Shown here in pieces: positions 1,413-19,443 of a stretch of 20,000 nt of DNA. How positions within the stretch are numbered: the stretch's first letter is position 1; every line of letters starts with the position of its first letter. The DNA lies in the IMG/VR virus record IMGVR_UViG_2061766007_001169; one strand, 5' to 3'. A program made the position numbers and the translations under genes. The stretch comes from an uncultured virus (IMG/VR IMGVR_UViG_2061766007_001169). Taxonomy: Duplodnaviria; Heunggongvirae; Uroviricota; Caudoviricetes. Under the pieces are notes generated by a model, which did not search any database, was not told the DNA's origin, and saw only the letters and a list, made by a program, of their open reading frames with translations.

Positions 1413-1431
1413 GGAGAGGAAGTGAACGACC

Positions 1432-1767
1432 GTGGCACTGATTTCAACTGAAGACGCGAAGGCTTATCTGCGCGTAGATTCTGCGGATGAGGATGCCACG
1501 GTCGGCATCCTCTTAGCCTCCGCCATCCGTTTATGTGTCGATATTGCAAGGCTGACCGATGAGCAATGGGAAGTGATCGATTCGGATGCTGAGTCCTCCG
1601 AGGATTACACGGAGTCGGAACTTTCCGCCATCCGGGAGACGATGAAAGTAGCAATCCTTTATTCCTGTGCCTATTTCTTTGAACACAGGGAGGACGCTGA
1701 CCATCACGCGCTGACATTGACGCTGCGCTCCCTGCTCTTTGCAATACGGGAAGGAGCGTTCTCATGA
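1432..1767 (+). CDS. Head-tail connector protein (HK97 gp6-like)
   Basis: GTG start after GAGGAAG; AKAYLRVD..DED at the N-terminus and AILY...YFFEHRE near the C-terminus; follows the capsid gene. Confidence 0.88.
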   Translation: MALISTEDAKAYLRVDSADEDATVGILLASAIRLCVDIARLTDEQWEVIDSDAESSEDYTESELSAIRETMKVAILYSCAYFFEHREDADHHALTLTLRSLLFAIREGAFS

Positions 1768-2117
1768 ATATAGCAGCTATGCGGGTGCGCGTCACCTTTC
1801 AGAAAAATACGGTCATCGTAGACAAGTACGGTAACCACAAAAACGGGTGGGCGGATTATTTCTCCTGCTGGGCGACCGCAGGCTCCAACAATGCGGTAAG
1901 CGGGACGGGGACCGGCTCTGAAAGCACGGGTGTTGTTATCCGCTCCGAAGAGTCCCTTTCCTTTACCTGCAGGTGGTGTTCCGAACTTGCCGCCGTGGAG
2001 TCCACGAAATATAGGATCGTCTGCGAGGGCAAGACCTACAACATCATCTATGTGAATCCGATGGGCTTCAAGCATAACAGCATCAAGTTTTCCTGCGAAC
2101 TGGAGGGTCAGTCATGA
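1764..2117 (+). CDS. Head closure / head-tail adaptor (SPP1 gp16-like)
   Basis: MNIAAMRVRVTFQ...DKYGNH...W.DYFSCWAT and YRI..EGKTYNI motifs; ATGA overlap with the upstream gene. Confidence 0.85.
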   Translation: MNIAAMRVRVTFQKNTVIVDKYGNHKNGWADYFSCWATAGSNNAVSGTGTGSESTGVVIRSEESLSFTCRWCSELAAVESTKYRIVCEGKTYNIIYVNPMGFKHNSIKFSCELEGQS

Positions 2118-2494
2118 GCCGCCGGGTATCCGTGGACGGCATGGCGGACGCCATCATGGAGGAGCTGACGAAGTACTCTGACCTTGCCGCCGATGAACTG
2201 AAAGCCGCCGTGAAAGAGACGGCGCAGTCGGTACGCAAGGACATCCAGGCATCCGCTCCGTCACGCACGGGAAAATACAAGAAATCGTGGTCGGTAAAGA
2301 CCGTGAAGGAATCCTCGGAAACCATCGACCTGGTGGTGCATTCCAAAAACCGCTATCAGATAGCGCACCTTCTGGAACACGGCCACGCCAAGCGCGGCGG
2401 AGGACGGGTCGCGGCAAGACCGCATATCGCTCCCGCCGAACAGGCAGGAAACGAAAAGCTGGTAAAGACCATCGAGCAGAAGCTGAAAGGATGA
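2114..2494 (+). CDS. HK97 gp10-family tail completion protein
   Basis: APSRTGKYKKSW, HLLEHGHAKRGGGRV.ARPHI.PA motifs; ATGA overlap. Confidence 0.9.
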   Translation: MSRRVSVDGMADAIMEELTKYSDLAADELKAAVKETAQSVRKDIQASAPSRTGKYKKSWSVKTVKESSETIDLVVHSKNRYQIAHLLEHGHAKRGGGRVAARPHIAPAEQAGNEKLVKTIEQKLKG

Positions 2495-2499
2495 TGCCT

Positions 2500-2829
2500 A
2501 TGACACACGAAGAAATCGTAACCATGCTGGAGGAGGCGAACCTTCCTCTTGCCTATGACCATTTTGCGGAGGGCGAGTCGCCTGATCCGCCTTTTTTAAT
2601 CTTCCTCTTTCCGGGGACGGACAATATGTTCGCCGACAATAAGGTGTGGCAGAAGATCAACCAGCTGAACATCGAACTGTACACGGACGAGAAGTCGCCG
2701 GAAACGGAAGAAACAATCGAGAACATCCTGGACTCCTACGAGATCCCCTACGAGAAGTCGGAGTACTGGATCGAATCGGAAAAGATGTATGAAGTGCTTT
2801 ATCAAACAGAAATTTTAGGAGGTAACTGA
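2500..2829 (+). CDS. Putative tail terminator protein
   Basis: Acidic ~110-aa ORF (LPLAYDHFAEGESPDPPFLIF...ADNKVW..I.QLNIELYTDEK) between gp10 and the major tail gene. The start may be 2491, 2494 or 2500; the ORF-track start at 2287 overlaps gp10 and is unlikely. Confidence 0.75.
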   Translation: MTHEEIVTMLEEANLPLAYDHFAEGESPDPPFLIFLFPGTDNMFADNKVWQKINQLNIELYTDEKSPETEETIENILDSYEIPYEKSEYWIESEKMYEVLYQTEILGGN

Positions 2830-2831
2830 CT

Positions 2832-3233
2832 ATGGCAACGAAAAAGAACAAAGTCAAGTTCGGTCTGAAGAACTGCCATTACGCCCTGGTCACGCTTGCG
2901 GATGATGGTACCGCCACATTCGGCACGCCTGTGGCTATGCCGGGCGCCGTATCCCTTTCGCTTGACGCGGAGGGTGAAAACGAGCCGTTCTACGCCGATG
3001 ATTCCGTGTACTACATGGTATCGGACAACAACGGCTATTCCGGCGATCTGGAACTTGCGCTTATCCCGGAGAGTTTCCTTACGGACATCATGCACGAGAC
3101 CGAGGACAGCAACGGCGTTCTCTATGAGAACAAGGACGTGGAGCCGGAACATTTTGCCCTGCTTTTCGAGTTCACGGGCGACCAGAGGAAGATCCGCCAC
3201 TGTATGTATTACTGCTCGGCGAGCCGTCCTTCC
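2832..3233 (+). CDS. Major tail protein, phi13 family, N-terminal part (cut by N-gap)
   Basis: RBS GGAGGT; KNKVKFGLKNCHYA, PGAVSLSLDAEGE..PFYADD, NNGYSGDLELA, FALLFEF.GD, YYCSASRPS. Confidence 0.92.
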
Positions 3234-3243
3234 NNNNNNNNNN

Positions 3244-3295
3244 TGACTGGGACTACGCGCAGGTCGCTACCCAGGAGCAGATGGACAGATTTTAA
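3244..3295 (+). CDS. 3' end of second tail chaperone ORF (T segment), allele 2
   Basis: DWDYAQVATQEQMDRF-stop, the same peptide as at ~3517-3566 with synonymous differences (CAG/CAA). Confidence 0.8.
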
Positions 3296-3313
3296 CGAAG
3301 GGAGGCAGGACGC

Positions 3314-3384
3314 ATGGCTGACAGAATTAAGGGCATAACAGTCGAGATCGGCGGCGATACGACCGGCCTCTCGAAAGCCCTGTC
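3314..3384 (+). CDS. True N-terminus of the tape measure protein (displaced fragment)
   Basis: RBS GGGAGG, then MADRIKGITVEIGGDTTGLSKAL, a typical TMP start in this phage type; sits immediately after the T-segment stop, as in normal synteny. Confidence 0.85.
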
Positions 3385-3402
3385 NNNNNNNNNNAAAGGG
3401 AG

Positions 3403-3566
3403 ATGACAACGCCGTTGTTCCTGCTCCGGTGTGTGCAGATCGGGCTTTCCATCTCGGAACTCGATCTGCTCACCATCGGGACGGTGAACGATATGTATGC
3501 GGAAATGTCAAATGACGACTGGGACTACGCGCAAGTCGCTACCCAAGAGCAGATGGACAGATTTTA
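3403..3566 (+). CDS. Second tail assembly chaperone ORF (T segment of G/GT pair)
   Basis: MTTPLFLLRCVQIGLSISELDLLTIGTVNDMYAEMSNDDWDYAQVATQEQMDRF; stop truncated at the gap; small ORF normally found between chaperone G and TMP. Confidence 0.8.
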
Positions 3567-3577
3567 NNNNNNNNNNA

Positions 3578-3754
3578 TCCGGCAATACCCGCGAGGATTC
3601 TACCGAGGTGCAGACAGAAACACTCTCGCTGACCGTTTCCCCTCTGCCGAGCGGACTGGTGAAGGTCAAGACCGGGACGAACACCACGGCGGCTGTCTAT
3701 GACGCCTGGTACAACTCGGTATATGAGATTTCAACCGAAAGCAGCGGCGAGTAA
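3578..3754 (+). CDS. Major tail protein, C-terminal part (displaced in scaffold)
   Basis: SGNTREDSTEVQTETLSLTVSPLPSGLVKVKTG...YDAWYNSVYE-stop continues the ...SRPS end at 3233 as expected for this family; directly followed by the chaperone gene. Confidence 0.85.
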   Translation, partial: SGNTREDSTEVQTETLSLTVSPLPSGLVKVKTGTNTTAAVYDAWYNSVYEISTESSGE

Positions 3755-3768
3755 GGAGGGCTTAAATC

Positions 3769-4134
3769 ATGGCAGTAACAAAAACAATCGCCGTTGACGG
3801 CAAAGACGTGACTTTCCGTGCGTCTGCCGCCATCCCACGGCTTTACAGAAACAAGTTCCATAGGGACATTTACCGTGACCTGAACGAACTTCAGAAAGGG
3901 ATCGATGAGAACAGTGCCGGGGAATCCAACCTCGACACTTTTTCTTTGGAACTTTTCGAGAACATTGCGTGGCTCATGGCAAGGCACGCCGACTCTGCCG
4001 TTCCCGACTCTCCCGAAGAGTGGCTGGACGGCTTCAACACCTTTTCCATCTACGAGGTGCTGCCGCAGATCATTGAACTGTGGAGCATCAACACGCAGCA
4101 GCAGGTCGAGTCTAAAAAAAACGTCCCGCCACGG
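3769..4134 (+). CDS. Tail assembly chaperone (gpG-like), last codons cut by gap
   Basis: RBS AGGAGG; MAVTKTIAVDGKDVTFRASAAIPRLYR..F.RDI, LELFENIAW.MA, PEEWLD.F.TFSIYEVLPQIIELW, ending ...ESKKN over an A8 run. Confidence 0.85.
4113..4122 (+). other. Putative -1 ribosomal frameshift slippery site (A AAA AAC)
   Basis: TCT AAA AAA AAC at the end of chaperone G; X XXY YYZ heptamer at 4116-4122 in the right phase; G/GT frameshifting is conserved in long-tailed phages. Confidence 0.75.
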
Positions 4135-4144
4135 NNNNNNNNNN

Positions 4145-4262
4145 TACTGAAACTTGATCCTACGAATACAACGCTCCTTCAGCAGAAACAGCAGCTTTTG
4201 AAAACTGCTATCTCTGAAACCAAGGACAAGCTGACACAGCTGAAATCCGTGCAGGATCAGAT
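4145..4262 (+). repeat. Alternative allele fragment of tape measure 5' region
   Basis: Encodes LLKLDPTNTTLLQQKQQLLKTAISETKDKLTQLKSVQDQ, near-identical to ~4307-4425 with synonymous changes; bounded by 10-N gaps. Confidence 0.85.
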
Positions 4263-4272
4263 NNNNNNNNNN

Positions 4273-7141
4273 GTCCACGCAGACACAGCTGAAGGACGTC
4301 AATAAATTATTGAAGCTTGATCCTACGAATACAACGCTCCTTCAGCAGAAACAGCAGCTCTTAAAGACTGCTATCTCTGAAACCAAGGACAAGCTGACGC
4401 AGCTGAAATCCGTGCAGGATCAGATGGATGAGGGCTTGAAGAACGGCACGGTCACACAGCAGCAGTATGACGCCTGGCAGAGGGAGATCGTAGAAACAGA
4501 AAACGAACTGAAGAACCTGCAAAAAGAACTGGACAATTCCTCCACGGCAATGACGAAAATGACTGCCGCCGGGGAGAAACTCCAGTCTGTGGGCGATACC
4601 ATTTCCGGCGTGGGAAAGAAGATGCTGCCCGTGACCGCAGGCATCACGGCGCTCGGAACGGCGGCTGTCACCACGGCGGCAAACTTTGAATCGTCCATGT
4701 CGCAGGTGCAGGCTACGATGGGCATCACCAAGGATTCCATGTCCGAGGTGGACGGGCAGTCCGTCAATACGATGGACGCGCTCACAGACCTTGCAAAGCA
4801 GATGGGCGAAACCACGGCATTTTCCGCCACGGAGTGCGCCGAGGCGTTAAACTACCTCGCGCTTGCCGGATATGATACACAGGAAATGGTGGACACGCTG
4901 CCGACCGTTCTGAACCTTGCCGCCGCGGGCGGTATGGAACTTGCCACGGCATCGGATATGGTAACGGACGCCATGTCCGCTCTCGGCATGGAAACATCCG
5001 ATGCGGATGTCATGGTCGACCAGATGGCAAAGACCGCGTCCAGCACCAATACTTCCGTAGAGCAGCTCGGCGAGGGCATTCTTAAGATTGGCGCGACAGC
5101 AAGGAGCGTAAAGGGTGGTACGGCGGAACTGAACACGGCGCTCGGCATCCTTGCCAATAACGGCATCAAGGGAGCCGAGGGCGGCACACACCTCCGTAAT
5201 GTCATCCTCTCTTTGCAGGAGGGCTGTGAGAACGGCGCTATCGCTGTGGGCGATATGTCTGTCCAGGTCTATGACGCTGAGGGAAATATGCGTTCCCTCA
5301 ATGACATCCTCGGCGACATGAACACGGCGATGGACGGCATGACTGCCGAAGAGAAAAACAACATCATCAGTAAGATCTTCAATAAGACAGACCTTGCGTC
5401 TGTCAATGCGCTCCTCGCCAATACGGGTGATACCTGGGATGAACTGCAGAATTCCATCACCAATTCCGCAGGCGCGGCGCAGCAGATGGCGGACACGCAG
5501 CTTGACAACCTGCAGGGACAGCTGACGCTTTTGAAGTCTGCCCTGGAGGGGCTTGCCATCTCCATCGGTCAGATTCTGATGCCTTATATCAAGTCCATCG
5601 TTTCTCACATTCAGAGTTTCGTGGACTGGCTGAACAATCTTGACGAGCGGACGCAGAAGATCATCGTGACGGTGGCGCTCGTAGTAGCGGCAATTGGTCC
5701 CGTGCTGATCATCGTGGGCAAGGTCATCTCCTCGGTCGGTACGATCATGACGATCATTCCGAAGATCGTGTCGCTGATGGGAACGGTCAAGACCGCTATG
5801 GCGGGGCTGAACGCTACGATGGCGGCGAACCCCATCGGCCTTATCATTACGGCGATAGGTCTTTTGGTAGCGGCGTTCATTTACCTTTGGAACAACTGCG
5901 AAGGTTTCCGGGAGTTCTGGATCAACCTCTGGGAGAAGGTCAAAGAGATAGCGGTCACCGTATGGAACGCCATCAAGGATTTCTTTGTGTCCGTATGGGA
6001 GGCTATCAGCGGAACCTTTACGACTGTGGTTACCGCGATCAGGGATTTCCTGTCCTCCGCCTGGGAGGGCATCAAAAATACAGTCAGCACGGTGATGAAT
6101 GCCATTCATACGGTGATCTCCACGGTGTGGAATACGATAAAAACGGTATTCGAGACTGTTTTCAATGTCATAAAGACTGTGGTCACGACCTATTTCAATA
6201 TCTACAAGACCATCATCGAAACGGTGCTGAATGTCATAAAGACTGTGGTGACTACGGTGGTGAACGCAATCAAGACAGTCATTACCACGGTCTGGAACGC
6301 CATAAAAACCGCTGTCGAAACCGTTGTGAATGCTATAAGGACAGCGGTCACCACGGCATGGAATGCGATAAGCACCACCACATCGACCATCTTCAATACC
6401 GTAAAGACTGTGATTTCTACGGTTTGGAACGCAATTAAAACAGCGGTTACGACCATCGTCAATGCGATCCATACCGCCATCAGCACAGCCTGGAATGCTG
6501 TCAAAACCACGACCTCCACGGTTTTCAATGCCGTAAAGAGTGTGGTCACTTCCGTGTGGAACGGCATAAAGACGGCGATCATGAATGTGGTCAACACAAT
6601 AAAATCCGGCATCACGAACGGCTTCAATGCGATCAAGAGTACCGTCTCCAATATCGTGAACGGCATCAAGAATACCATCTCCAATGTGTTCAATACCATC
6701 TGGAGTACGGTTTCCGGCATCGTGAACAAGCTGAAAAGCGTGTTCAACTTCAGCTGGAGCCTGCCGAAGATCAAGCTGCCGCATTTCTCCATAACGGGCA
6801 GCTTCTCGCTGAACCCGCCGTCCATTCCGCATTTCTCTGTGGACTGGTACAAGAAGGCAATGTCGGGCGGCATGATCCTAAAGGACGCCACGATCTTTGG
6901 ACAGAGTGGAAATACGCTCCTTGGCGGCGGAGAAGCCGGGGACGAGGCTGTGGTGGGCGTGTCCTCCCTTCGTTCTATGATTCAGGACGCTGTGCAGGGC
7001 GCGGCTCTGTCGCTTTCGGGTGACCAGCCGCTTATCAACATCGAAGAAATGAGCGTGAGGAGCGACGACGATATCCGCAAGATTTCTCAGCAGCTGAACA
7101 CGCTCTTAAATGCCGGCAGACGAGCGAAAGGATATATCTGA
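4273..7141 (+). CDS. Tail tape measure protein, TP901 family (5' end displaced to 3314-3384)
   Basis: >940 codons open. TP901-type core (AKQMGETTAFSATECAEALNYLALAG, ALGILANNGIKGAEGGTHLRN, QLDNLQGQLTLLKSALEG), hydrophobic segments, Trp/Phe periodic repeats, C-terminal LPKIKLPHFSITG...WYKKAM..G..L..ATIFG...GGEAG.EAV. Confidence 0.95.
5940..6750 (+). repeat. Degenerate 11/22-residue aromatic repeats in tape measure protein
   Basis: Recurring (V/A)WNAIKTA(V/I)xT and (V/I)FN(V/A/T)(I/V)K units with W/F/V at ~11-residue spacing. Confidence 0.8.
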
Positions 7142-7183
7142 TATGGGATTTTCATTTAACGGTACGACTTCCCNNNNNNNNNN

Positions 7184-7352
7184 CTCCATGATACAGGACG
7201 CGGTGCAGGGCGCGGCGCTGTCGCTCTCCGGTGACCAGCCGCTTATCAACATACAGGAAATGAGCGTGAGGAGCGATGATGATATCCGCAAGATTTCGCA
7301 GCAGCTGAACACGCTCTTAAATGCCGGCAGGCGGGCGAAAGGATATATCTGA
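7184..7352 (+). repeat. Second allele of tape measure 3' end
   Basis: SMIQDAVQGAALSLSGDQPLINIQEMSVRSDDDIRKISQQLNTLLNAGRRAKGYI-stop versus ...INIEEMS... at ~6975-7141. Confidence 0.88.
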
Positions 7353-7353
7353 T

Positions 7354-7667
7354 ATGGGCTTTTCATTTAACGGTACGACTTCCCAGTCTATGGGAATCGC
7401 CACAAGGATCACAACTGAAAACCGTATGCCGGATATTCGGAACAACACCATCACCATGCCGGGACACGAGGGCGTATTCGACTTCGGGGAGACCATCGGC
7501 GAGAGGAAGATACAGATTTCCTGCTTCATCCCTCCGGGGAACAGCGATGAGGACTTTCTCTCGCTCAAGGACAATATCATAGCGTGGCTGAATCCTGACA
7601 ACGGACTCTGCCCGCTCATCCTCGACAAGGAACCGGGACGGGTGTATTCGGCACGGCTGAACGAGGG
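7354..7667 (+). CDS. Distal tail protein (Dit, siphovirus tail component), N-terminal fragment
   Basis: MGFSFNGTTSQSMGI...MPGHEGVFDFGETIGERKIQISC...LILDKEPGRVYSARL immediately after the TMP stop; another start copy at 7143-7173. Confidence 0.88.
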
Positions 7668-7677
7668 NNNNNNNNNN

Positions 7678-8172
7678 GCATGAGGGCGTGTTCGACTTCG
7701 GGGAAACCGTCGGCGAGAGGAAGATACAGATTTCCTGCTTNNNNNNNNNNAACCGTCGGCGAGAGGAAGATATAGATTTCCTGCTTTATCCCTCCGGGTA
7801 ACAGCGATGCGGGTTTCCTTGCGCTCAAGGACGATATCATAGCGTGGCTGAACCCGGATAAAGGGCTGTGTCCGCTGATACTCGACAAGGAACCGGGGCG
7901 GGTGTATTCCGCAAGGCTGAACGAGGGCTTCTCCTTTGATAAGGCGGTGCGCAATTCCTGCACCTTCGATCTTACGTTCCTCTGTCCCGATCCGTATGCC
8001 TACGCCGCTGCGGACGAGACATACACCATCGCGCAGACTGGGGATTCCACGGTGACAAGGACGCTTGGAAACGCCGTCTCCCTGCCTGTGTATTCGCTGA
8101 CAGGCGTTATCCCGTCCGGCACTTCTACCTACATCACGATAACGACCAACGGCAGCGAACTGAAGATCACGG
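7678..8172 (+). CDS. Dit allele fragments (7678-7740 and 7751-8172)
   Basis: HEGVFDFGETVGERKIQISC and TVGERK...FLCPDPYAYA...NGSELKIT; overlap other Dit copies with substitutions; gap-bounded. Confidence 0.82.
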
Positions 8173-8182
8173 NNNNNNNNNN

Positions 8183-8624
8183 CAATTCCTGCACCTTTGA
8201 CCTGGTGTTTTTATGTCCCGATCCGTATGCCTACGCCGCTGCGGACGAGACATACACCATCGCGCAGGCCGGAACTTCCACGGTTACAAGAACACTTGGA
8301 AACGCTGTCTCCCTGCCCGTCTATTCGCTGACAGGCGTTATCCCGTCCGGCAATTCTACCTACATCACGATAACGACCAACGGCAGCGAACTGAAGATCA
8401 CGGGCAGGCTTGCAAGCGGAGAAACGCTGGTCATAGATTCGTCGCTCATGACGGCGAAGGTGGTGGACGGAAACGGCAATACGCTCCGAAACGGTCTGCC
8501 GCTCCTCTCGGAGCTTAATTTCCCGACATTGAATGTAGGCGCAAACACGGTCACAGTCGCCGCCACGGGCAGCGGCGTGACCTTTACGGAATTGAACATA
8601 TCGGCAAGGAGCCGCTGGAGGTGA
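8183..8624 (+). CDS. Dit C-terminal allele fragment
   Basis: NSCTFDLVFLCPDPYAYA...NFPTLNVGANTVTV...ISARSRWR-stop; followed by tail-tip start MALKNTMN at 8631. Confidence 0.85.
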
Positions 8625-8630
8625 TTCTTT

Positions 8631-9443
8631 ATGGCTTTGAAAAATACGATGAACACNNNNNNNNNNGGGGCAAGTACCTGCGTCATGGGGCAAGGACGGG
8701 CTGTGGCGGTTCAATGAAACCGAGCCTGACGCGAACACCTGCACGGCGGACACCTCCGGCAACGGCAGGGATGCCTACATCAACAACTGGAGCGGCACGA
8801 CCGCCGATTTCAAGACAGGACATCTCGGTAACTACTTCCAGATGAACATCAACAATCCGTCATCGGAAAAGACCTATCTCAGGGCGTCNNNNNNNNNNGA
8901 CGCCTACATCAACAACTGGAGCGGAACGACTGCCGATTTCAAGACGGGGCATCTCGGTAACTATTTTCAGATGAACATCAACAATCCGTCATCGGAAAAG
9001 ACCTATCTCAGGGCGTCGAATGACGGTGCGATGTTCTCGGATATCGGAGACAGAATTATTGTCGGCGGGTGGTTCAAGCCTACCACCTATTCGGTCGGCA
9101 ACACCTATACACCTCTGCTCTCCACAAGAGCAGGCACGGGCAATCCGATTTTTTACCTGTCGCTCATCCGCGGCAAGCCGAGGATCATGCTCTACAACTC
9201 CTCCGGCTCCCTGATTCTCGACACATCGGTCACGCCGTCCTTCTCGTTTGTGAACGGCGGCTGGTATTTTATCGCCGCTGTGATAGAGCCAAACAATCAG
9301 AAAGCCTGGTATGTGGTCGGAGACAGGGAAAGCGGAGAGGTGTGGACTTCCTCCGCGCTGACCATCAACGGGACGCTGAACCGCTCCTGTACGGCAGACC
9401 TTGTCTGGGGAATGCTGAATACCTCCTACTGGTACGCGGGCGG
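8631..9443 (+). CDS. Tail tip protein N-terminal LamG/ConA-like domain, allele fragments (8631-8656, 8667-8888, 8899-9443)
   Basis: GLWRFNE....DTSGNGRDAYI, IIVGGWFKP, WYFIAAV, YWYAGG; LamG-like signature; matches the 11678-12330 region. Confidence 0.82.
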
Positions 9444-9453
9444 NNNNNNNNNN

Positions 9454-9895
9454 TAACTCCTGCACTTTCGACCTGGTATTTTTATGTCCCGATCCGTATG
9501 CCTACGCCGCTGCGGACGAGACATACACCATCGCGCAGGCCGGAACTTCCACGGTTACAAGAACACTTGGAAACGCTGTCTCCCTGCCTGTGTATTCGCT
9601 GACGGGCGTTATTCCATCCGGCACGAACACCTACATCACGATCACCACAAACGGCAGCGAACTGAGAATCACGGGCAGGCTTGCCAGCGGAGAAACGCTG
9701 GTCATTGACTCGGCGCTCATGACGGCAAAGGTGGTGGACGGAAACGGCGATACGCTGCGAAACGGTCTGCCGCTCCTCTCGGAGCTTAATTTCCCGACTT
9801 TGAATGTGGGAGCAAACACGGTCACAGTCGCCGTCACGGGCAGCGGCGTGACTTTTACGGAACTGAACATATCGGCGAGGAGCCGCTGGAGGTGA
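9454..9895 (+). CDS. Dit C-terminal allele fragment
   Basis: Homologous to 8183-8624, starting at the same homologous base; followed by ATGGCTTTGAAA at 9902. Confidence 0.85.
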
Positions 9896-9901
9896 TTCTT
9901 T

Positions 9902-10777
9902 ATGGCTTTGAAANNNNNNNNNNCTGGGGTACGGACGGTCTGTGGAGGTTCAATGAATCTGAACCGGACGCCAACACCTGCACGGTGGATTCTTCCGGGA
10001 ATGGCAGGGACGCCTACATCAACAACTGGAGCGGCACGACCGCCGCATTCAAAAAAGGGCATCTCGGTAACTACTTTCAGATGAATACCAGCAGTCCGTC
10101 CTCCGAAAAAACGTACCTCAGAGCCACCAACGACGGCACGATGTTCTCGGATATCGGCGACCGGATCATTGTCGGCGGGTGGTTCAAACCCACCACCTAN
10201 NNNNNNNNNTAGCAGTCCGTCCTCCGAAAAGACGTACCTCAGAGCCGCCAACGACGGAACGATGTTCTCGGATATCGGAGACAGGATCATCGTCGGCGGG
10301 TGGTTTAAACCGACAACCTATTCGCTCGGCAACGCCTATTCCCCTCTTCTTTCCACTCGCGGCGGAACCGGGCAGCCCATCTTCTATCTGTCCCTGCTTC
10401 GCGGCAAACCGAGAATCTCACTTTACAATGCCTCCGGCTCATTGATTCTCGATTTCTCGGTCACGCCGTCCTTTTCCCTTGTTGTTGACCATTGGTACTT
10501 TCTTACGGCGGTGATAGAGCCGGATAACCAAAAGGCGTGGTATGTGGTCGGTGATAGAAATTCCGGCGAGGTATGGATCTCCTCTGCGCTCACTATCAAC
10601 GGGACGCTGAACCGCTCCTGTACAGCAGACCTTGTCTGGGGAATNNNNNNNNNNGGATAATCAGAAAGCCTGGTATGTGGTCGGCGACAGGGAAAGCGGC
10701 GAGGTGTGGACTTCCTCCGCACTTACCATCAACGGGACCCTGAACCGCTCCTGTACAGCAGACCTTGTCTGGGGAAT
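9902..10777 (+). CDS. Tail tip protein LamG domain, further allele fragments (9902-9913, 9924-10199, 10210-10644, 10655-10777)
   Basis: Same motifs as the other copies with synonymous and non-synonymous differences; each piece is bounded by 10-N gaps. Confidence 0.82.
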
Positions 10778-10787
10778 NNNNNNNNNN

Positions 10788-11536
10788 GGTCTATGGGGAT
10801 TGCCACAAGAATTACAACTGAAAACCGTATGCCGGACCTTACCAACAACACGGTCAAAATGCCGGGACACGAGGGTGTTTTCGACTTCGGGGAGACCATC
10901 GGTGAAAGGAAGATACAGATATCCTGTTTCATCCCTCCCGGCATGAGCGATGCGGACTTCCTCGATCTGAAGGACAGTATCATTGCGTGGCTCAATCCCG
11001 ACAACGGGCTGTGTCCGCTGATACTCGACAAGGAACCTGGGCGGGTGTATTCCGCACGGCTTAATGAGGGCTTTTCCTTTGACAAGGCAGTGCGGAATTC
11101 CTGCACCTTTGACCTGACATTCTTATGTCCCGATCCGTATGCCTATGCCGCCACGGACGAGACATACGATATCGGGAGCGTGGGAACGCATACGGTTTCC
11201 CGCTCCCTTGGGAACGCTTACTCCCTGCCGGTGTACTCGCTGACGGGAGTGATCCCTTCCGGCACGGACACATACATCACGATAACCACGAATGACAGCG
11301 AGTTGAAGATCGTAGGGAAACTTTCTGCCGGGGAAACACTGATCATCGACTCGTCTCTCATGACGGCAAAGGTGGTGGACACAAACGGCGATACGCTCCG
11401 GAACGGTCTGCCGCTTTTGTCGGAACTAAATTTTCCTGCTTTGGATGTGGGAGCAAATACGGTCACGGTGGCGGTTTCCGGCAGTACGGTGACCTTTACG
11501 GAACTTCAAATATCGGCGAGGAGCCGCTGGAGGTGA
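10788..11536 (+). CDS. Dit, near-complete allele (lacks first ~11 codons)
   Basis: SMGIATRITTENRMPD...FLCPDPYAYA...ISARSRWR-stop in one uninterrupted frame. Confidence 0.9.
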
Positions 11537-11542
11537 TTTTGT

Positions 11543-14180
11543 ATGGCTTTAAAAAATACGATGAACACACAGGATGCCTTTACCGGGCAATTCCCCACAT
11601 CGTGGGGAAAGGACGGACTGTGGCGCTTCAATGAATCTGAACCGGATGCGAACACCTGCACGGCGGANNNNNNNNNNAGGGCAGGTGCCTTCCTCCTGGG
11701 GAAAGGACGGCCTGTGGAGGTTTAACGAATCCGAGCCTGACGAAAACACCTGCACAGCAGACTCCTCCGGCAACGGACGCGACGCTTACATCAACAAGTG
11801 GAGCGGTACGACCGCCGATTTCAAGACGGGGCATCTCGGTAATTATTTTCAGATGAACATCAACAATCCGTCCTCGGAGCAGACCTATCTGCGTGTATCC
11901 AATGACGGCACGATGTTCTCGGATATCGGTGAGCGGATCATCGTGGGCGGCTGGATGAAACCTACCACCTATTCCGTGGGCAACACATACACGCCGCTTT
12001 TATCCACGAGAGCGGGAACGGGCAATCCGATCTTTTACCTGTCCCTTATCCGTGGAAAGCCGAGACTGATGCTATACAATTCCTCCGGCAGCCTGATTCT
12101 TGATACCTCGGTCACGCCGTCCTTTTCACTTACCAACGGCAACTGGTACTTCATTGCCGCGGTGATAGAGCCGGACAATCAGAAAGCTTGGTACGTGGTC
12201 GGCGACAGGGCGTCCGGCACGGTATGGACATCCTCTGCGCTTACGATAAGCGGAACGCTGAACCGCTCCTGCACGGCAGACCTCGTCTGGGGAATGCTGA
12301 ACACTTCCTACTGGTACGCAGGCGGCTTTGACGACTGGTTCCTGGACTGCGATTCGGATCTGACTACTGACGATATCGCCGAGTGGTTTTTGAAATCCCT
12401 CTCTGCCAATGGCGCGGACACGGATTCCGATGTGGACGGTCTGACCGCAGAAGATACGGTCATGCTCAAAGGGGCGGGCGGTGTCTATGCTGAAAGCGGT
12501 GTGCTTATCACAGCCTCCACGGAGTGTGGGATAGCAGGAACGGGCAGAGTTTCCGTCAAGGCGGAGACGTCTCCGGGCGTGACGTCCGTTTCACTGGTCG
12601 AGACATCGACCTCGGATGATCTCGCCACCTGGACGGACTGGATTTCCCTCGGCACGGGCGGGGCATTGCAGTCCCCGTCAAAAAAGTACATCCGGTACCG
12701 CATCACGCTTGCCACCACGAATACGGCAAGGACGCCTGTGCTGACGGCGATAAGCCTGTACGACAATCCGAAACCGCTTTATTCGCAGCTTGGCTATGCA
12801 CGTCCCGTTATCCTTGGAGATGATGATAGCGCCGAGGCTGTGCTTGAGAACGCCTACGACATCATTGTCACCAGCGAGATCAACGGCATCGACACGCTGG
12901 AATTCAAGCTGCCCTTCAAGGACAGTAAGCGTGAGTACGTAGAGAACGAAAAGCAGGTGCGCATCGTATCCGACACCTACCGCATCCGTACCGTCACGGA
13001 TGATAAGGACGAGAGCGGCAAGGCGATCACTTCCGTATATGCGGAGGCGGCGTTCTATGACCTGTCCTTCTCCGCCAAGAAGGAAGAAAACACCTTCACG
13101 GCGGATACCGCTGATGTTCCGATGGCGTATGCCCTGCAGGGCACGGAATGGGAAGTCGGCGTGGTCAATGTCAGCACCAAGAGGACATGGACATCGACCG
13201 AGGACAATGCGCTCTCCATTCTCCGCCATGTGCAGAACATCCACGGCGGCGACCTGATCTTTGATAATGCCAACAAGCTCGTAAACCTGCTGACATTCTC
13301 CGGCACGGACTCTGGGGCGCTGTTCTGCTACAAGAAAAACATGAAGTCCATCCAGAGGGTGATCGACACCACGAGCCTTATCACGAGGCTCTACGCTGTC
13401 GGTGCGGACGGCATGACCTTCGCCTCCATCAATGACGGCAAGCCGTATGTGGAGGACTTCACCTATACGAGCGAGATACGCATCAAAACGCTGGACTGCT
13501 CCAATTTCACGAACCCTTATCAGATGCTGGAGTTTGCCAATATGCGCCTTGCGGACTACGCGGCGCCGCGAATTTCCTATGTTCTGAAAGCGATGGATCT
13601 GACCGTGCTGACGGGCTATGAGCATGAGGCGTGGAACCTTGGCGATACGGTCATGGTGGTGGATGAGGATTTAGACCTTTCCATCAAGACGAGGATCGTC
13701 CGAAGGGAGTATAACCTGCAGGAGCCCTGGAACACGGTACTGGAACTTTCCACCACGCTTCGTGAACTTGGCGATTCCACGTCTCAGTGGGATGCTGCCG
13801 CAGATGTCCTTGAGGGCGCGAACTACATCGACAACCAACAGCTGCAGAACTTTGTGCCGTTCAACCATCTGAAAAACTCCCGCGCCGACTCCAATTTCAG
13901 TTACTGGACAAATTCTGGCTTTGAGGTTGATGGGGATAACGGCGTGACTGGCACGGCCTCCTTCAAGTGCGAGGGTGCGTACAACGCCACCAAGTACATG
14001 GAGCAGACCGTCACTCCCTCCAACCGTGACAGCTATACCTTTTCTGCACAGATCGCCACGGAGAACCTCAGTCTCGGCAGCAACGGACAGGTCGGCGTGG
14101 AGATCGTGATCGAGTATGAGGACGGCAGCACGGAAACGAGGACGATAGACCTTATATCCTCGTCAGATACGGAGGTGTGA
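11543..14180 (+). CDS. Tail tip/spike protein: N-terminal LamG domain, Tal/prophage tail endopeptidase-type hub domain, C-terminal partial CBM-like domain
   Basis: RBS GGAGGTG, ATG 11543 (fragment to 11667), then an overlapping allele 11678-14180. Hub motifs: SEINGIDTLEFKLP, GALFCYKKNMKSIQRVIDTTSLITRLYAVG, LGDTVMVVDEDL...RIVRREYNLQEPW...LELS. C-terminal NHLKNSR...W...QTV...YTFSAQI. Confidence 0.9.
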
Positions 14181-14184
14181 CGCT

Positions 14185-14379
14185 ATGGCAAGTTTTACCC
14201 ATGTGCATGGCACGGTGAGTCCCCAGTTCGGCAGGGTCGCAAAGATCACGGTCAGAGTATTTGTCAATGACTGCACGGGGACGGTATACATCACGGATAT
14301 GAATTTGCAGGACGGCTCCCTTGCCTCCGGTTGGGTCGGTCATGTGAGCGAGATAGAGTGGACACAGGACGGTGATTAA
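14185..14379 (+). CDS. Small tail-associated protein (C-terminal half of a CBM-like beta-sandwich)
   Basis: Own RBS GGAGGTG overlapping the spike stop; 64 aa; ITVRV...DCTGTVYITDMNLQDG..ASGW. Confidence 0.75.
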   Translation: MASFTHVHGTVSPQFGRVAKITVRVFVNDCTGTVYITDMNLQDGSLASGWVGHVSEIEWTQDGD

Positions 14380-14943
14380 ATGGCTGATTTTGAACGCTTT
14401 GTAGAGGTTATTTCCAAAAAAGAGGATAAGCGTGTGGTCAATATCACCGTCCGTCCGATTGTCACAGACTGCGAGGGTGATATCTGGTTTACCGACCTTA
14501 TGCTCCAGGAGGGCGATATGCTGTCGGGCTATATGCCTCACACGAAGGGGCTTCTGAAGGAATCGGAGAATGATCCCGTGTGGTTCAACGGCATCGTCCG
14601 CTCGGAGGAAACGGTGATTCTTTTAAACCTCGGCGGCACATCGGCGGGGCTTGATATCCACCTTTATCCGAAACAGGACATGGACGGCGGCACAGTCACG
14701 CTGGCGCAGGGTGTCGGCGGTCAGAAAGCGACCTTCCCGAATTCCATGTATGCCGGGGACGATGTGGCTCTTCTGTCATCCACGCGGGAATGCACGAGGA
14801 ACGGCAGTACGGAAACGAAGTACGGATTCTTCCAGTACAGCGCGGCGTGGGATTCCAAGCACATCGTATCCCTGCCGCAGGGAAAATCCGCACAGCTTTT
14901 ATATTCGATGCAGGAAATGGACGATGGAGGTGAACTGCTCTGA
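14380..14943 (+). CDS. Hypothetical tail-associated protein; N-terminus paralogous to preceding ORF
   Basis: 187-aa ORF directly abutting the upstream stop and overlapping the downstream start; ITVRP..TDCEGDIWFTDLMLQEG..LSGY. Confidence 0.78.
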   Translation: MADFERFVEVISKKEDKRVVNITVRPIVTDCEGDIWFTDLMLQEGDMLSGYMPHTKGLLKESENDPVWFNGIVRSEETVILLNLGGTSAGLDIHLYPKQDMDGGTVTLAQGVGGQKATFPNSMYAGDDVALLSSTRECTRNGSTETKYGFFQYSAAWDSKHIVSLPQGKSAQLLYSMQEMDDGGELL

Positions 14944-17414
14944 TGGACACATTAAAGGGAAAGAAGATCATGGTGTGGACTTTCATGGGCAACACCAGGA
15001 TGTATAACGCTCTCCGTGACTACGGCGACCGCATCAGCCAGATCGGGCTGTTTTCCTTCAAGGTCAGGGCTACCGGGGAGATTTACGAGACGGGCGTTTC
15101 CATATCGTCAATGATGACTTACATCAACCGCTATCCGCATATCAAGTGGCTCTTGACTGTTGCGAATGACGGTACGAACAGCATCTTCCGTGCCTTGCGG
15201 GATAACACCAACGGCGCACAGGATATGTTCCTCTCAGAACTTGTCCGTATCATGGAAAAATACCCGTGGTGTGACGGCATTGATATCGACCTCGAAAAAG
15301 GCGATGGCTATTCCACTCATGCGGCATCCACGCAGATGTTTGCCAATATCTATAACACGGTCAAAGGCTACGACTCCTCGAAGCTGATGAACATCTGCCT
15401 GCCGGGTATGACGAGCGTCAACGGCTCGGTCGGCGGCGAGAACTGGTGCGTGTATGCCGATCTCAACGATTACTGCGATACCGCGTCCATCATGAGCTAC
15501 GGCATGGCGTGGGCAGGCTCCGCGCCAGGACCGGTATCTCCGCGCTCCTGGCTTGAGGGGATTTACAACTATGCATCCCAGGTCATGGATACGGATAAGG
15601 TGTTCCTTGGAATGCCTGCCTACGGCTGGAACTGGCAGATATATGACAAGCCGGAGAACATTGGGAAATCCTATCGCGGCACTTCACAGACCTACTACGC
15701 TGCGCAGAACTGGCTGAAGGGCGTGTATAACTTCACGGATGATCAGCCGCCGCAGCCCTTTATTCCGTTCGTGGGCTACTGGGACGATAACAACAAAGTG
15801 CCGTGGGCGCTCCCTCATGTGTACGACTACATGGAAGGACGGGACGCAGACAGCTACGAGTACCCGCAGATGTCGGGGACATACAACGGCAGGCACTATC
15901 TGACCGCATACGGAAAACAGCAATCGACAGATTTCGATAATATCATCATCGACCATGATGGCGGCAATTACGCCAGCGCATCCGGCATCGTATCCATCGA
16001 GAACGGCATTGCCACGCTCGGTGATGAAGGCTCCGTCACATACCAATTTACCGTCAGTACGGCGGGAACCTACGATGTGGCGGTGCGGCTCTGTTATCCC
16101 TTCTGGGACAAGAACGGCATCTATGTATCACTGGACGGAGCAACCACGCATTTCACGGAAAGTCGCCTGTGGTGGCCGTATTGGAGAACGACCTTCTGGA
16201 CTGCGCTTGCAAGCGGTGTGAGCCTTTCGGCAGGGACGCATACGATAAAGATTTCTGTCGATGTGAAGGGCGTACAGTTTTACGGGTTCCGTGTCTGTTC
16301 ATCCTTTTCGGAAGAGCCATCCGCAGGAGAAGCAACCTATTCCTTTTCCCCACGGCGATTCAAGGGTGTGGAGGGCAGCATGGTCGGACCCGACCGTGGT
16401 TTCCGTCTCACCTTGGAGATGCTCCGTAGAAAGCCCGACTCGGCGCTCGTCTGGTATGAGGACTTTCGTGACTACGGCGTGTTGGAGACAAATTACTGGA
16501 CAGTGTTGTCAGGTTCCTTTACCGTGTGGCGGTCAGATGAATACTCTACGGAGCGCGTCTACTCCCAGCTTGACGGCAAGGGTCAGCTTGCATGGAAGTA
16601 TGACGGCTTTTCGGATATTCACCTCCGGGCAAGGCTGGCATTCCCGGCAAGCGGCAGCGGCAAGGCAGGCATATTCTGCGGTGATCTGTTCTGCTGTCTG
16701 AATTACGATAGTCAGGCGGTAGAACTGTACAACGGCTCTACGCTCCTTGGCAGATACAGTCAGGAGATCACGAGGACGCCGACCGCAGACCTTCGTGACG
16801 ATCCGAATATGTACACGGTGGAGATGCGCATCCGAGGGAATAAGGTGCGTGTCTATTCCGGCTCGTCCTATACGCTGCGGTTTACGGCAACGGTCAGCGG
16901 CTTCTCCGGCGGCTATGCCGGGTATCGTTCTGACAATCGGACGGTCTGCGAACTGATGCGCCTGGGTGACGCCTGGACTTATGAGCCGTATGAGCGGTTC
17001 GATGTGGTCATGCCGGACGGGACGCAGAAATCCTACGGCCGCATCAGCAGGAGCAATTGCACATGGGACAGCGAGTTCCAGGTGTTCACGCTGACTGCCG
17101 ATGTGGAGGAGTCATCCACTCGAAGCGAGGATATCTCGATGGACTACGACTTCTTCCATTCGGATGATATGACTTCGCTTTCCTGTGGCAACGACTACCA
17201 GGCAACTGTTATTCCCGTGGATATCAACATCTGGATATCCCGCCTGTTCCTCGGCGATGCGGACGGTTTCTCCATCCTCTATTACCAGGATGTGGACTCC
17301 CTCGTCTATTGGGCGAACGAGGCGGCCTATCGATGGAATCTCCGGGGGATGTGTATGTGGTCCCTTGGGCAGGAAGATCTGCGGCTATGGGAATGGCTGC
17401 CGAAACAGGTATGA
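14943..17414 (+). CDS. Glycoside hydrolase family 18 protein with large internal insertion (putative tail-associated)
   Basis: Intact DxxDxDxE motif (DGIDIDLE, 15273-15296), IMSYG, GPVSP..WL, KVFLGMPAYGWNW, and terminal LRGMCMWSLGQED; RBS GGAGGTG. Confidence 0.88.
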   Translation: MDTLKGKKIMVWTFMGNTRMYNALRDYGDRISQIGLFSFKVRATGEIYETGVSISSMMTYINRYPHIKWLLTVANDGTNSIFRALRDNTNGAQDMFLSELVRIMEKYPWCDGIDIDLEKGDGYSTHAASTQMFANIYNTVKGYDSSKLMNICLPGMTSVNGSVGGENWCVYADLNDYCDTASIMSYGMAWAGSAPGPVSPRSWLEGIYNYASQVMDTDKVFLGMPAYGWNWQIYDKPENIGKSYRGTSQTYYAAQNWLKGVYNFTDDQPPQPFIPFVGYWDDNNKVPWALPHVYDYMEGRDADSYEYPQMSGTYNGRHYLTAYGKQQSTDFDNIIIDHDGGNYASASGIVSIENGIATLGDEGSVTYQFTVSTAGTYDVAVRLCYPFWDKNGIYVSLDGATTHFTESRLWWPYWRTTFWTALASGVSLSAGTHTIKISVDVKGVQFYGFRVCSSFSEEPSAGEATYSFSPRRFKGVEGSMVGPDRGFRLTLEMLRRKPDSALVWYEDFRDYGVLETNYWTVLSGSFTVWRSDEYSTERVYSQLDGKGQLAWKYDGFSDIHLRARLAFPASGSGKAGIFCGDLFCCLNYDSQAVELYNGSTLLGRYSQEITRTPTADLRDDPNMYTVEMRIRGNKVRVYSGSSYTLRFTATVSGFSGGYAGYRSDNRTVCELMRLGDAWTYEPYERFDVVMPDGTQKSYGRISRSNCTWDSEFQVFTLTADVEESSTRSEDISMDYDFFHSDDMTSLSCGNDYQATVIPVDINIWISRLFLGDADGFSILYYQDVDSLVYWANEAAYRWNLRGMCMWSLGQEDLRLWEWLPKQV

Positions 17415-17521: not shown

Positions 17522-17944
17522 ATGAAAGAATTCTGGAACACCATTCAACTCATCTTTACGGCAATCGGCGGATGGCTCGGCTACTTCCTCGGCGGCTGTG
17601 ACGGTCTGCTCATCGCTCTTGTGGCGTTCGTAGCAATCGACTACATCACGGGCGTCATGTGCGCTGTGGCGGACAAGAAGCTGTCCAGTGAGGTCGGCTT
17701 CAAGGGTATCTGCCGCAAGGTGCTTATTTTTCTGCTCGTGGGGATTGCCAATATCCTCGATGTGCAGGTCATCGGCACGGGCAGCGTCCTTCGCACTGCG
17801 GTGATCTTCTTCTACATCTCCAACGAGGGCGTATCTCTCACGGAGAATGCCGCGCACCTGGGTCTGCCTATACCGGAAAAGCTGAAAGCGGTGCTGGAGC
17901 AGCTCCATGACCGCGACACCGATGGAAAGGACGGTGACGAGTAA
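17522..17944 (+). CDS. Holin (toxin secretion/phage lysis holin, Phage_holin_4 type)
   Basis: GGWLGYFLGG.DGLL.AL...IDYITGV, LSSEVGFKGI.RKV, FFYISNEGVSL.EN...LGLPIPEKLK; RBS GAAAGGAAGG. Confidence 0.93.
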   Translation: MKEFWNTIQLIFTAIGGWLGYFLGGCDGLLIALVAFVAIDYITGVMCAVADKKLSSEVGFKGICRKVLIFLLVGIANILDVQVIGTGSVLRTAVIFFYISNEGVSLTENAAHLGLPIPEKLKAVLEQLHDRDTDGKDGDE

Positions 17945-19443
17945 TGGCATATACGAACAGTTCAATGGTGGCTTACACCAAACTCAGCCCGAACCATTCC
18001 GGGCAGCGGACGCATTCCATCGACCGGATCACTCCTCACTGCGTGGTCGGTCAGTGTACGGCGGAGGGACTTGGGGACTGGTTCGCCAAGTCCTCCACAC
18101 AGGCATCCTCAAATTACGGCATCGATAAAGACGGCCGTGTCGGAATGTATGTGGAGGAGAAGAACCGCTCCTGGTGTTCTTCCTCCAATGCCAATGACCA
18201 GAGGGCGATCACCATCGAGTGCGCATCCGATACCACGGAGCCGTATGCGTTCCGCGACATCGTTTATCAGACGCTCATCAAGCTGTGCGTGGATATCTGC
18301 AAGCGAAACGGCAAGACGAAGCTGCTCTGGCTCGGCGATAAGGACAAGACGCTCGCCTATGAGCCGAAGTCCGGCGAGATGGTGATGACTGTCCATCGGT
18401 GGTTCGCCAATAAGTCCTGTCCCGGCAACTGGATGTATGCCAGGATGGGCGATCTTGCAGAAAAGGTCACGGCGGCTCTCGGCGGTGGTACCGAGGGTAC
18501 CGATGGTTCCACTACTACACAGGGAACACAAGCTTCTGCCTTTGCCGGGAAATCCGAGGCGGATGTTGTAAAGAGTGTGGGAGCATTGTTTACGGCAGAC
18601 CAGAAGAAAACGGGCATCCTCGCATCGGTTTCGATGGCGCAGTTCATCCTCGAATCCGGCTACGGCAAGTCGGAACTGGCGCAGAACGCCAATAACGTCT
18701 TTGGCATGAAATGCTCCCTCTCCGGCAATACCTGGAGCGGTTCGACCTGGAATGGAACGAGCAAGTACACCAAGCAGACAAAGGAGCAGAACGCGGACGG
18801 CAGCTATACCACCAGCACGGCTGACTTCCGTAAATACCCGTGCGTGGAGGATTCCATTGCCGACCATTCCGCTTATCTGCTCGGAGCGAAGAACGGCAGC
18901 AAACTCCGCTATGAAGGTCTGAAAGGCTGCACGGACTACAGGAAGGCGGCGCAGATCATCAAGGACGGCGGGTACGCCACGAGCCTGACCTATGTTCAGA
19001 ACCTCTGCTCCATCATCGAGCGGTGGAACCTCACGCAGTTTAATGTGAAGGAAAGCGAAACGGCTATCGCCTGGTACCGCGTCCGTAAGACCTGGGAGGA
19101 CGCCAAAACGCAGAAAGGCGCATATAAGATTTTGGAGAACGCCAAAAAATGCGCGGACGCCAATCCAGGATATAGTGTATTCGATGTAAACGGTGTAAAC
19201 ATCTACACACCGAAAACAACTGCTCCTGCGGCATCTGCCGATGTGCCGTTCCTCGTGCGAATCACTATCACCGACCTCAATATCCGCAAAGGACCGGGGA
19301 CGGACTATGACAGGACGCAGTATATCCCTGTCGGCGTTTACACCATCGTAGAGGTCAAGTCCGGCAAAGGTTCGACCGCAGGATGGGGACGCTTAAAGAG
19401 CGGCGCGGGATGGATCAGCCTGGACTTCGCCACGAGAGTTTAA
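17944..19443 (+). CDS. Endolysin: Amidase_2 + GH73 glucosaminidase + C-terminal cell-wall-binding (SH3-like) region
   Basis: Amidase: ITPHCVVG, ASSNYGI, ITIECAS, HRWFANKSCPG. GH73: AQFILESGYGKS.LA..ANNVFGMK, GGYATS..Y. C-terminal LNIRKGPGT.Y...YTIVEV....WGRLKSG.GWISL. TAATG coupling with holin. Confidence 0.93.
   Translation: MAYTNSSMVAYTKLSPNHSGQRTHSIDRITPHCVVGQCTAEGLGDWFAKSSTQASSNYGIDKDGRVGMYVEEKNRSWCSSSNANDQRAITIECASDTTEPYAFRDIVYQTLIKLCVDICKRNGKTKLLWLGDKDKTLAYEPKSGEMVMTVHRWFANKSCPGNWMYARMGDLAEKVTAALGGGTEGTDGSTTTQGTQASAFAGKSEADVVKSVGALFTADQKKTGILASVSMAQFILESGYGKSELAQNANNVFGMKCSLSGNTWSGSTWNGTSKYTKQTKEQNADGSYTTSTADFRKYPCVEDSIADHSAYLLGAKNGSKLRYEGLKGCTDYRKAAQIIKDGGYATSLTYVQNLCSIIERWNLTQFNVKESETAIAWYRVRKTWEDAKTQKGAYKILENAKKCADANPGYSVFDVNGVNIYTPKTTAPAASADVPFLVRITITDLNIRKGPGTDYDRTQYIPVGVYTIVEVKSGKGSTAGWGRLKSGAGWISLDFATRV

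Follow-up and report, generated by a model that had tools for sequence, protein, structure and literature searches.

How does a phage tail-tip protein that stops partway through a domain obtain the remainder of that domain? The question is raised by a stretch of 20,000 nucleotides from an uncultured member of the Caudoviricetes (the window), where a Tal / tail-tip gene is followed by two small genes, P and M, and then by a gene for a GH18-family enzyme. An earlier note, made from the letters of the window, had proposed that a CBM-like beta-sandwich begun at the Tal C-terminus (here the socket) is completed in trans by either of two alternative peptides (here the plugs). The relevant features are as follows:

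11574..14180, + strand: Tal / tail-tip protein, with N-terminal extension, Prophage_tail hub and C-terminal half-domain
13860..14156, + strand: socket in the Tal C-terminus, predicted first two-thirds of a CBM16/CBM4-like jelly-roll
14171..14177, + strand: Shine-Dalgarno GGAGGTG of the 64-aa gene, within the last Tal codons (sequence)
14185..14379, + strand: plug P, 64 aa, PHROG 3473 (unknown function), predicted three strands and a conserved W-x-x-H-x-x-E-x-x-W tail
14380..14943, + strand: M, 187-aa ORF, plug part and Dit galectin-like domain
14380..14541, + strand: plug part of M, residues 1-54 (profile alignment to intact CBM_4_9 domains)
14542..14943, + strand: Dit C-terminal galectin-like domain of M, residues 55-182, without the Dit ring domain (structural match)
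14943..17414, + strand: GH18-family tail enzyme with an inserted CBM6/35-like domain, PHROG 3432 (Pfam/PHROG, TP84_26 relative)
17522..19443, + strand: holin and amidase/glucosaminidase endolysin, end of the tail module (PF05105, PF01510, PF01832)

Gene order and sequence integrity

The scaffold that makes up the window is gapped: it contains 20 N runs, of which the last spans 11668-11677. The true start of Tal is probably 11543, its 5' end being broken by that gap, and the end of Tal, P and M lie downstream of position 11677 in gap-free sequence, as the earlier note had held. The peptides it quoted from the end of Tal, the 64-aa ORF and the 187-aa ORF were all recovered in place, although the end drawn for Tal needed correction: the protein runs 8 residues beyond 'TIDL', over the ribosome site of the next gene. 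P starts 4 nt past the Tal stop in the +1 frame relative to Tal, and it does have the ribosome site of its own (GGAGG, 14171-14175) that had been read there; M directly abuts the P stop. The Tal-P junction was bridged by contigs of four other runs from four studies, none flagged as a possible source of the window (X3, 13900-14625; X4, 13900-14399; X9, 14118-14259; X11, 14040-14394) with 0 differences and no indel, bearing out the earlier view that it is no scaffold-gap artefact. In comparison with 8 close relatives, pN/pS was 0.12 for P, 0.13 for the socket and 0.15 for the M plug. Tal, P and M fall into three separate PHROG families, and the Tal family (PHROG 3475) ends where this Tal ends, being matched to its final position (841/841).

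The Tal C-terminus resembles two-thirds of a jelly-roll

The assignment as Tal follows from the Prophage_tail hub domains (PF18994, residues 412-492, E 9e-16; PF06605, residues 494-738, E 8e-76) and from the position of the gene after those for the tape measure and Dit, a separate true Dit gene lying upstream. Among the matches listed (120 of 312), the Tal of close relatives was 847 aa long. The earlier note had named a Tal end that folds complete on its own as one case against its reading. The predicted model of this end (pLDDT 82) was not a complete domain and held only one long hairpin plus short bridges.

Residues 17-119 of the socket model were matched to residues 1-102 of 146 in 2ZEW_A (VIA Z 8.7, rmsd 2.4, 98 aligned), a Z score that is moderate on the VIA scale and with which the sequence matches concur. 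Further matches were 2XOM 21-120 (Z 7.1) and 4D0Q 52-163 (Z 6.6), such that the model corresponded to the first ~100 residues of CBM16, CBM61, CBM70, CBM4 and CBM22. Foldseek returned no match for the socket model at E<=0.001, CBM16 topping the weak rows. At the sequence level, the socket profile matched CBM16 2ZEZ (E 0.0015), and socket relatives matched CBM_4_9 positions 2 to 90-99 of 136, with PF02018 found at E<=0.1 in 24/99 of them (best 2.3e-8). Against 10 intact CBM_4_9-type domains the socket aligned to positions 4-77 (E 8e-5), leaving ~45 residues of the intact domain absent. These models and profiles support the socket as the N-terminal two-thirds of a CBM4_9-clan jelly-roll, for which CBM16 would be the nearest solved fold.

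Several searches were negative. HHalign gave no match between either the socket or P and the single intact CBM in one relative (L313), searching PDB sequences with P, M and Tal 403-868 brought up no genuine relative, and a BppA-family search provided no intact domain for comparison. As a separate observation, the conserved aromatics sit at structural-looking positions.

P and M begin with homologous plugs

The beginnings of the 64-aa and 187-aa ORFs were mutually homologous (HHalign 99.4%, E 1.3e-21, 57 columns), as had been noticed from the letters. Their extent had been drawn too short: the plug begins at about residue 4, one strand earlier, and so comprises three predicted strands. A T-D-x-x-L-Q-x-G core is common to P and M, and Asp38/Asp39, which all 99 P and 79 M sequences share, aligned with the 'IDD' of intact CBMs, whose Asp in the last strand is presumably a structural calcium ligand in the CBM4_9 clan. 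We infer a calcium site with ligands from both chains.

When aligned to the 10 intact CBM_4_9 domains, the M plug covered residues 109-153 (E 6e-4) with a score of 23.6, against 12.6 for the best of 60 shuffles. P aligned weakly to residues 128-153 with a score of 17.5, which the best of 60 shuffles exceeded (20.0; next shuffle 15.0), and none of the 99 aligned P sequences matched a Pfam CBM family. The earlier division of the fold, about two-thirds in the spike and one-third in each small gene, gained support: the socket covers 2ZEW 1-102 of 146, and the plug of M maps clearly, that of P weakly, to the strands that are missing.

In 14 actinobacterial-type loci (L043, L306, L308, L310, L312-L320 and relatives, the host type being judged by likeness to Glutamicibacter and Microbacterium seeds), P formed the N-terminus of fibre-like proteins of 158-485 aa, and in L277 it headed a 510-aa protein. 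Seven of the 10 scanned extensions contained a Pfam phage tail repeat (best E 1.9e-6), a coiled-coil or, once, an intact CBM_4_9, these Pfam matches lying mostly under curated cut-offs. Because it heads fibre-like proteins, the plug behaves as an attachment handle. In eight phage records P was annotated as hypothetical, except in Montesquieu ('Tail protein').

M was modelled at pLDDT 89. Residues 1-54 (pLDDT 75-85) had no strand pairing in the monomer, whilst residues 55-182 matched residues 133-253 of SPP1 Dit 2X8K (VIA Z 12.4-13.1, rmsd 1.9-2.1), the next four or five matches being other Dits (Z range over Dits 8.7-13.1). The plug region was absent among the matches listed in the structural searches. 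By its predicted structure, the second domain is a Dit galectin-like domain, sharing the fold of SPP1 gp19.1 (2X8K), 80alpha 6V8I, TP901-1 4V96, monocin 9J1K and Douge 8ZDO. Unlike these Dits, M lacks the N-terminal ring-forming (belt) domain of ~130 residues and has the plug in its place, with just 54 residues, homologous to P, preceding the galectin domain. Its TP-84 counterpart TP84_25, whose BFVD model matched M with TM 0.74 of query at 15% identity, had been given the name 'distal tail protein' on the basis of an HHpred match (PMC5889276, accessible text); M is nonetheless not a Dit. The contrast drawn earlier between a plain cap and an adaptor with an extra domain gained independent support.

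The split is conserved in phages of two host phyla

Collections of viruses, genomes, metagenomes and named phages supplied 401 loci, making 402 stretches with the window. The set includes contigs fetched twice and many near-copies (215 distinct junctions) and was gathered with patterns from this family, by which distant fused ancestors could be missed. The Tal end was present in 401/402 stretches and closed by a stop in 398, of which none (0/398) had Tal fused to a plug, extending to homologous phages the split first seen here; in 386/398, Tal ended -1 to +8 residues from the last socket strand. In the protein database, 188/189 socket-bearing proteins ended at 0 or +7 and one at +24, and a socket followed by a plug in one chain was found in none of the 189, with 120 of 312 and 120 of 434 matches taken into the searches for fused forms. 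Scoring 8000 candidates yielded three that were rejected on inspection: a chimera of P and M from a 1.2-kb contig, the P protein of 510 aa in L277 and a garbled ORF without a socket. P0108 and P0253 were also discarded as socket-then-plug proteins (10.5-bit match 360 residues upstream; reversed order, 88 aa).

The order P, M, GH18 was found with profiles of 99 and 79 sequences in 319/331 loci having at least 1.5 kb downstream. The other 12 comprised seven with two plugs and no recognised M C-domain, two without a GH18 match, one with three plug matches, one with P only and one with none, the last two being broken loci. Named-phage records were matched 192 times by the socket, 190 by P and 189 by the GH18 C-terminus, including 166 Microbacterium phages each; these are tallies rather than record lists, with socket and P counted at E<=1. 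The same module occurs in Geobacillus TP-84, GBK2 and GR1, Bacillus BSP7 and BpsM-61, Microbacterium Hamlet and Schubert, and Glutamicibacter Montesquieu, such that the socket-P-M-GH18 order recurs in phages of Bacillota and Actinomycetota; TP84_23-26 of TP-84 and genes 19-23 of Microbacterium cluster EA form orthologous modules. In several loci unrelated genes, some on the opposite strand, separated Tal from P or P from M, and so no covalent or translational link is needed. The split is real, conserved and probably functional.

The GH18 enzyme downstream of M

Dit galectin domains are the docking place of side appendages in solved baseplates. The protein encoded after M matched PF00704 at 53.6 bits (cut-off 29.6) and carries the catalytic DxxDxDxE at 111-118 (D111-x-x-D114-x-D116-x-E118), the final D-x-E being kept in at least 90% of 71 relatives. 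It is a relative of TP84_26, which the accessible parts of PMC10131341 and PMC10815759 present as a characterised capsule depolymerase of TP-84, free and in virions. The free soluble form is an apparent tetramer and the virion form a faint band (PMC10131341); those same parts of the two papers do not describe its mode of attachment to the virion. On balance, M would serve as the adaptor for the GH18 depolymerase, with GH18 docked on M, a pairing suggested by co-inheritance and gene order.

A model of three-strand complementation and its alternatives

Taking the parts together, we think it fairly probable that three strands complement the fold at the Tal trimer: P would serve as a cap or to anchor a fibre, and M would act as an adaptor, probably for GH18. 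The Tal C-terminus would be a deliberately incomplete jelly-roll without its last three strands, and as two of these sit mid-sheet in intact CBMs, such a socket could not close alone. The N-termini of P and M would supply the strands, rebuilding the domain across two chains during tail assembly. Given a Tal trimer, described like the Dit galectin domain in the accessible text of PMC9437275, each tip would offer three sockets, most likely occupied by a mixture of the two plug types, both of them permanent. In the window P would be no more than a cap, in some relatives the anchor of a fibre, whilst M would present its Dit galectin-like domain, most likely to the always co-inherited GH18 depolymerase. 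From profiles and models, the rebuilt domain would be CBM16-like in fold, with sugar binding putative.

Confidence differs between the parts of this model. Sequence profiles and structure predictions make it highly probable that at least one plug binds in trans, and it is likely that both occupy Tal sockets. In a jelly-roll, none of the last three strands pairs with another of the three, their partners all lying in the first two-thirds; because of this topology, an unpaired M 1-54 and a hollow socket are the pattern expected of complementary halves. The unpaired monomer models are suggestive, being also what AlphaFold, which tends to reproduce part-folds, may draw from its memory of intact CBMs. 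Mean-field covariation between the socket and the plugs was too shallow to be informative (256 and 213 paired rows, effective 64 and 59), as strand ladders were lacking inside the socket as well. A difficulty for the model is that two plug types share three sockets, and that a trimeric P-fibre, bringing three plugs, might take up every socket and exclude M. The tetramer reported for free TP84_26 also fits poorly on a three-fold tip. A more elaborate version is doubtful, namely a symmetry-breaking hub in which three identical half-domains receive two plugs in a set ratio, placing a fibre or cap and a depolymerase adaptor on one tip through one standard interface kept across two host phyla, with a two-chain calcium site.

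It is unlikely that only P completes Tal and that the M plug completes another, unrecognised half-domain (for example in GH18) or adds onto Tal-P, giving a chain Tal-P-M-GH18. Such an arrangement would remove the problem of three sockets and two plugs and would suit trimeric P-fibres, and the invariant residues do differ between the plugs (W50, E56 and W59 in P; R6 in M). Yet an HMM scan of the 401 loci, covering both strands, revealed no second socket, nor did HHalign of the socket against GH18 and the rest of Tal (probability 0.1-0.4%), and therefore one socket gene would serve two plug genes; M also shares the core motif of P. A tree of 80 plugs (40/79 loci, 66 columns) further separated P and M within each host lineage, and grouped actinobacterial-type P and M together, apart from Bacillota P and M (98/96), as if both tracked one socket. 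This grouping fits co-adaptation to one socket, but also duplication in each lineage independently, conversion or a bias in composition. Plain descent from one ancient duplication of P and M was considered too, and is not what the tree (2 changes) shows.

Virion data from TP-84 bear on another, rather improbable, arrangement, in which P is a temporary placeholder or folding chaperone exchanged for M, or in which virions mix all-P and all-M tips. In the accessible part of PMC5889276, TP84_23 (Tal) and TP84_25 (M) were detected in virions by MS at their predicted masses, whereas TP84_24, the P homologue of 7.9 kDa, was not detected by gel-band MS, and neither was TP84_26. A transient P would agree with this absence and with the strong ribosome site of P, placed ahead of M. 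Gel-band MS often misses small proteins, however, swapping three core strands would need near-unfolding, and the fusion of P to fibre-like domains in the 14 loci argues that it is a permanent part. TP-84 carrying a His/S tag on the Tal C-terminus was infective with the tag exposed (PMC12205831, accessible text), in agreement with a free Tal end. Dissociation of TP-84 in EDTA is cited by the authors of PMC5889276.

Joining of Tal and P by a frameshift or stop readthrough into a normal single-chain CBM is very improbable. In some relatives the gap that follows TGA is 12 nt long and in frame, and a 132-aa protein (P0178) joins the last strand of the socket in frame to a plug, but behind an unrelated N-terminus. 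A programmed event would be expected to conserve the frame relation, whereas the 215 distinct junctions used frames 0/+1/+2 in 72/80/63 cases with gaps of -17 to 1133 nt, some with whole genes inserted, in line with the earlier dismissal of simple readthrough. A Shine-Dalgarno match of at least 4 nt preceded the next gene in 183/215 junctions, start-picking having favoured such matches. The predicted mass of TP84_23 in virions and the infectivity of the C-terminally tagged phage also count against recoding, which would leave M unexplained. An assembly error or decayed gene, to which the 20 N runs upstream might point, is weaker still given the same junction in four other runs and in isolated lytic phages and the purifying selection; both recoding and artefact are close to excluded.

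Relation to known systems

The socket shares its fold and N-terminal signature with the CBM16/CBM4_9 clan (2ZEW, 2XOM, 4D0Q, 4BJ0), and the M plug maps onto the last three strands of that fold. In contrast to the clan, the domain is here spread over separate genes in every closed locus examined, with two alternative C-terminal thirds. Its place at a Tal C-terminal extension is like that of the CBMs in streptococcal siphophage Tal extensions (PMC9437275, accessible text).

In donor-strand complementation, known from chaperone-usher and type V pili, an incomplete beta-sandwich is completed by the N-terminal extension of another protein. Models and profile mapping suggest a comparable completion here. 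The differences are that the donor would provide three strands (~45-55 residues) rather than one, to a jelly-roll rather than an Ig fold, and that assembly would be that of a virion in the cytoplasm, with no chaperone or usher and two donors per acceptor. Unlike in pili there would be no polymer, as no P, M or GH18 chain has both socket and plug. Full-text searches, with subscription journals and supplements largely aside, found no earlier description of the Tal/P/M split, and the module was not treated in the accessible parts of PMC10674732, PMC9394477, PMC10459684, PMC9331655 or 10.1101/2025.05.26.655371.

If correct, this reading would explain how the capsule depolymerase TP84_26 and variable fibres are attached to the tail tip, and would assign a role to two genes now called hypothetical, in a family of ~190 records in the phage collection searched. 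Virion assembly would also gain a form of fold complementation with three strands and two donors. The reading is approachable in cultured phages whose hosts are harmless, as TP-84 has a genome-assembly system and tolerates tags at the Tal end. In that case a thermophilic phage would also offer a tight natural split domain, useful as a protein tag.

Variability of the tail-tip module among related loci

The region running from P (64-aa plug gene) through M (plug plus Dit galectin-like domain) to the GH18 gene is an insertion hot spot. The P-M interval of one related locus, L085, holds an additional gene whose product, judged by sequence, appears to resemble an Erm/KsgA-type rRNA methyltransferase:

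L085:5579-6367, - strand, P-M insert coding for 262 aa

Inserts also occupy this interval in L086, L112, L255, L279 and L304, and the M-GH18 interval in L031-L035. In L310, L312, L315, L317 and L319, M is separated from the P-fibre gene (P as the N-terminus of a longer, fibre-like protein) by 2-7 paralogues in tandem, each coding for about 120-135 aa, with copy number differing among related prophages:

L319:6158-8816, example of the tandem paralogous gene array between the P-fibre gene and M

The array proteins have a common N-terminal motif (P-Y-P-D-x-x-P-W/x-x-D-L) and, judged by sequence, look like putative stand-alone receptor-binding heads. Complete gene order is retained in a very AT-rich relative:

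L277:5320-9364, P of 510 aa, M of 200 aa and GH18-like protein shortened to 633 aa

Architecture of the GH18 and Tal proteins

The GH18 barrel appears to be broken up by nested insertions, namely a CBM6/35-like domain, lacking in many relatives, and another beta-rich region, after which barrel-like strands seem to resume at the C-terminus:

Window 14943-17414, GH18 protein, CBM6/35-like domain at residues 358-440

The tail-tip protein Tal is 457-461 aa long in many database proteins among the matches listed. Tal is also short in the Geobacillus phages GBK2 and GR1, where a distinct fibre-like gene sits between Dit and Tal, whereas in the window's group Tal itself is instead extended by 380 aa at its N-terminus:

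L039:4397-5455 and L044:4198-5361, GBK2/GR1 short-Tal, fibre-like gene arrangement

Twenty N runs were found across window 273-11677, and Dit and Tal N-terminal fragments recur at 7110-11725 in slightly differing versions. The scaffold is probably a mixture of several related prophage variants, and the 868-aa Tal start would therefore be a gap artefact.
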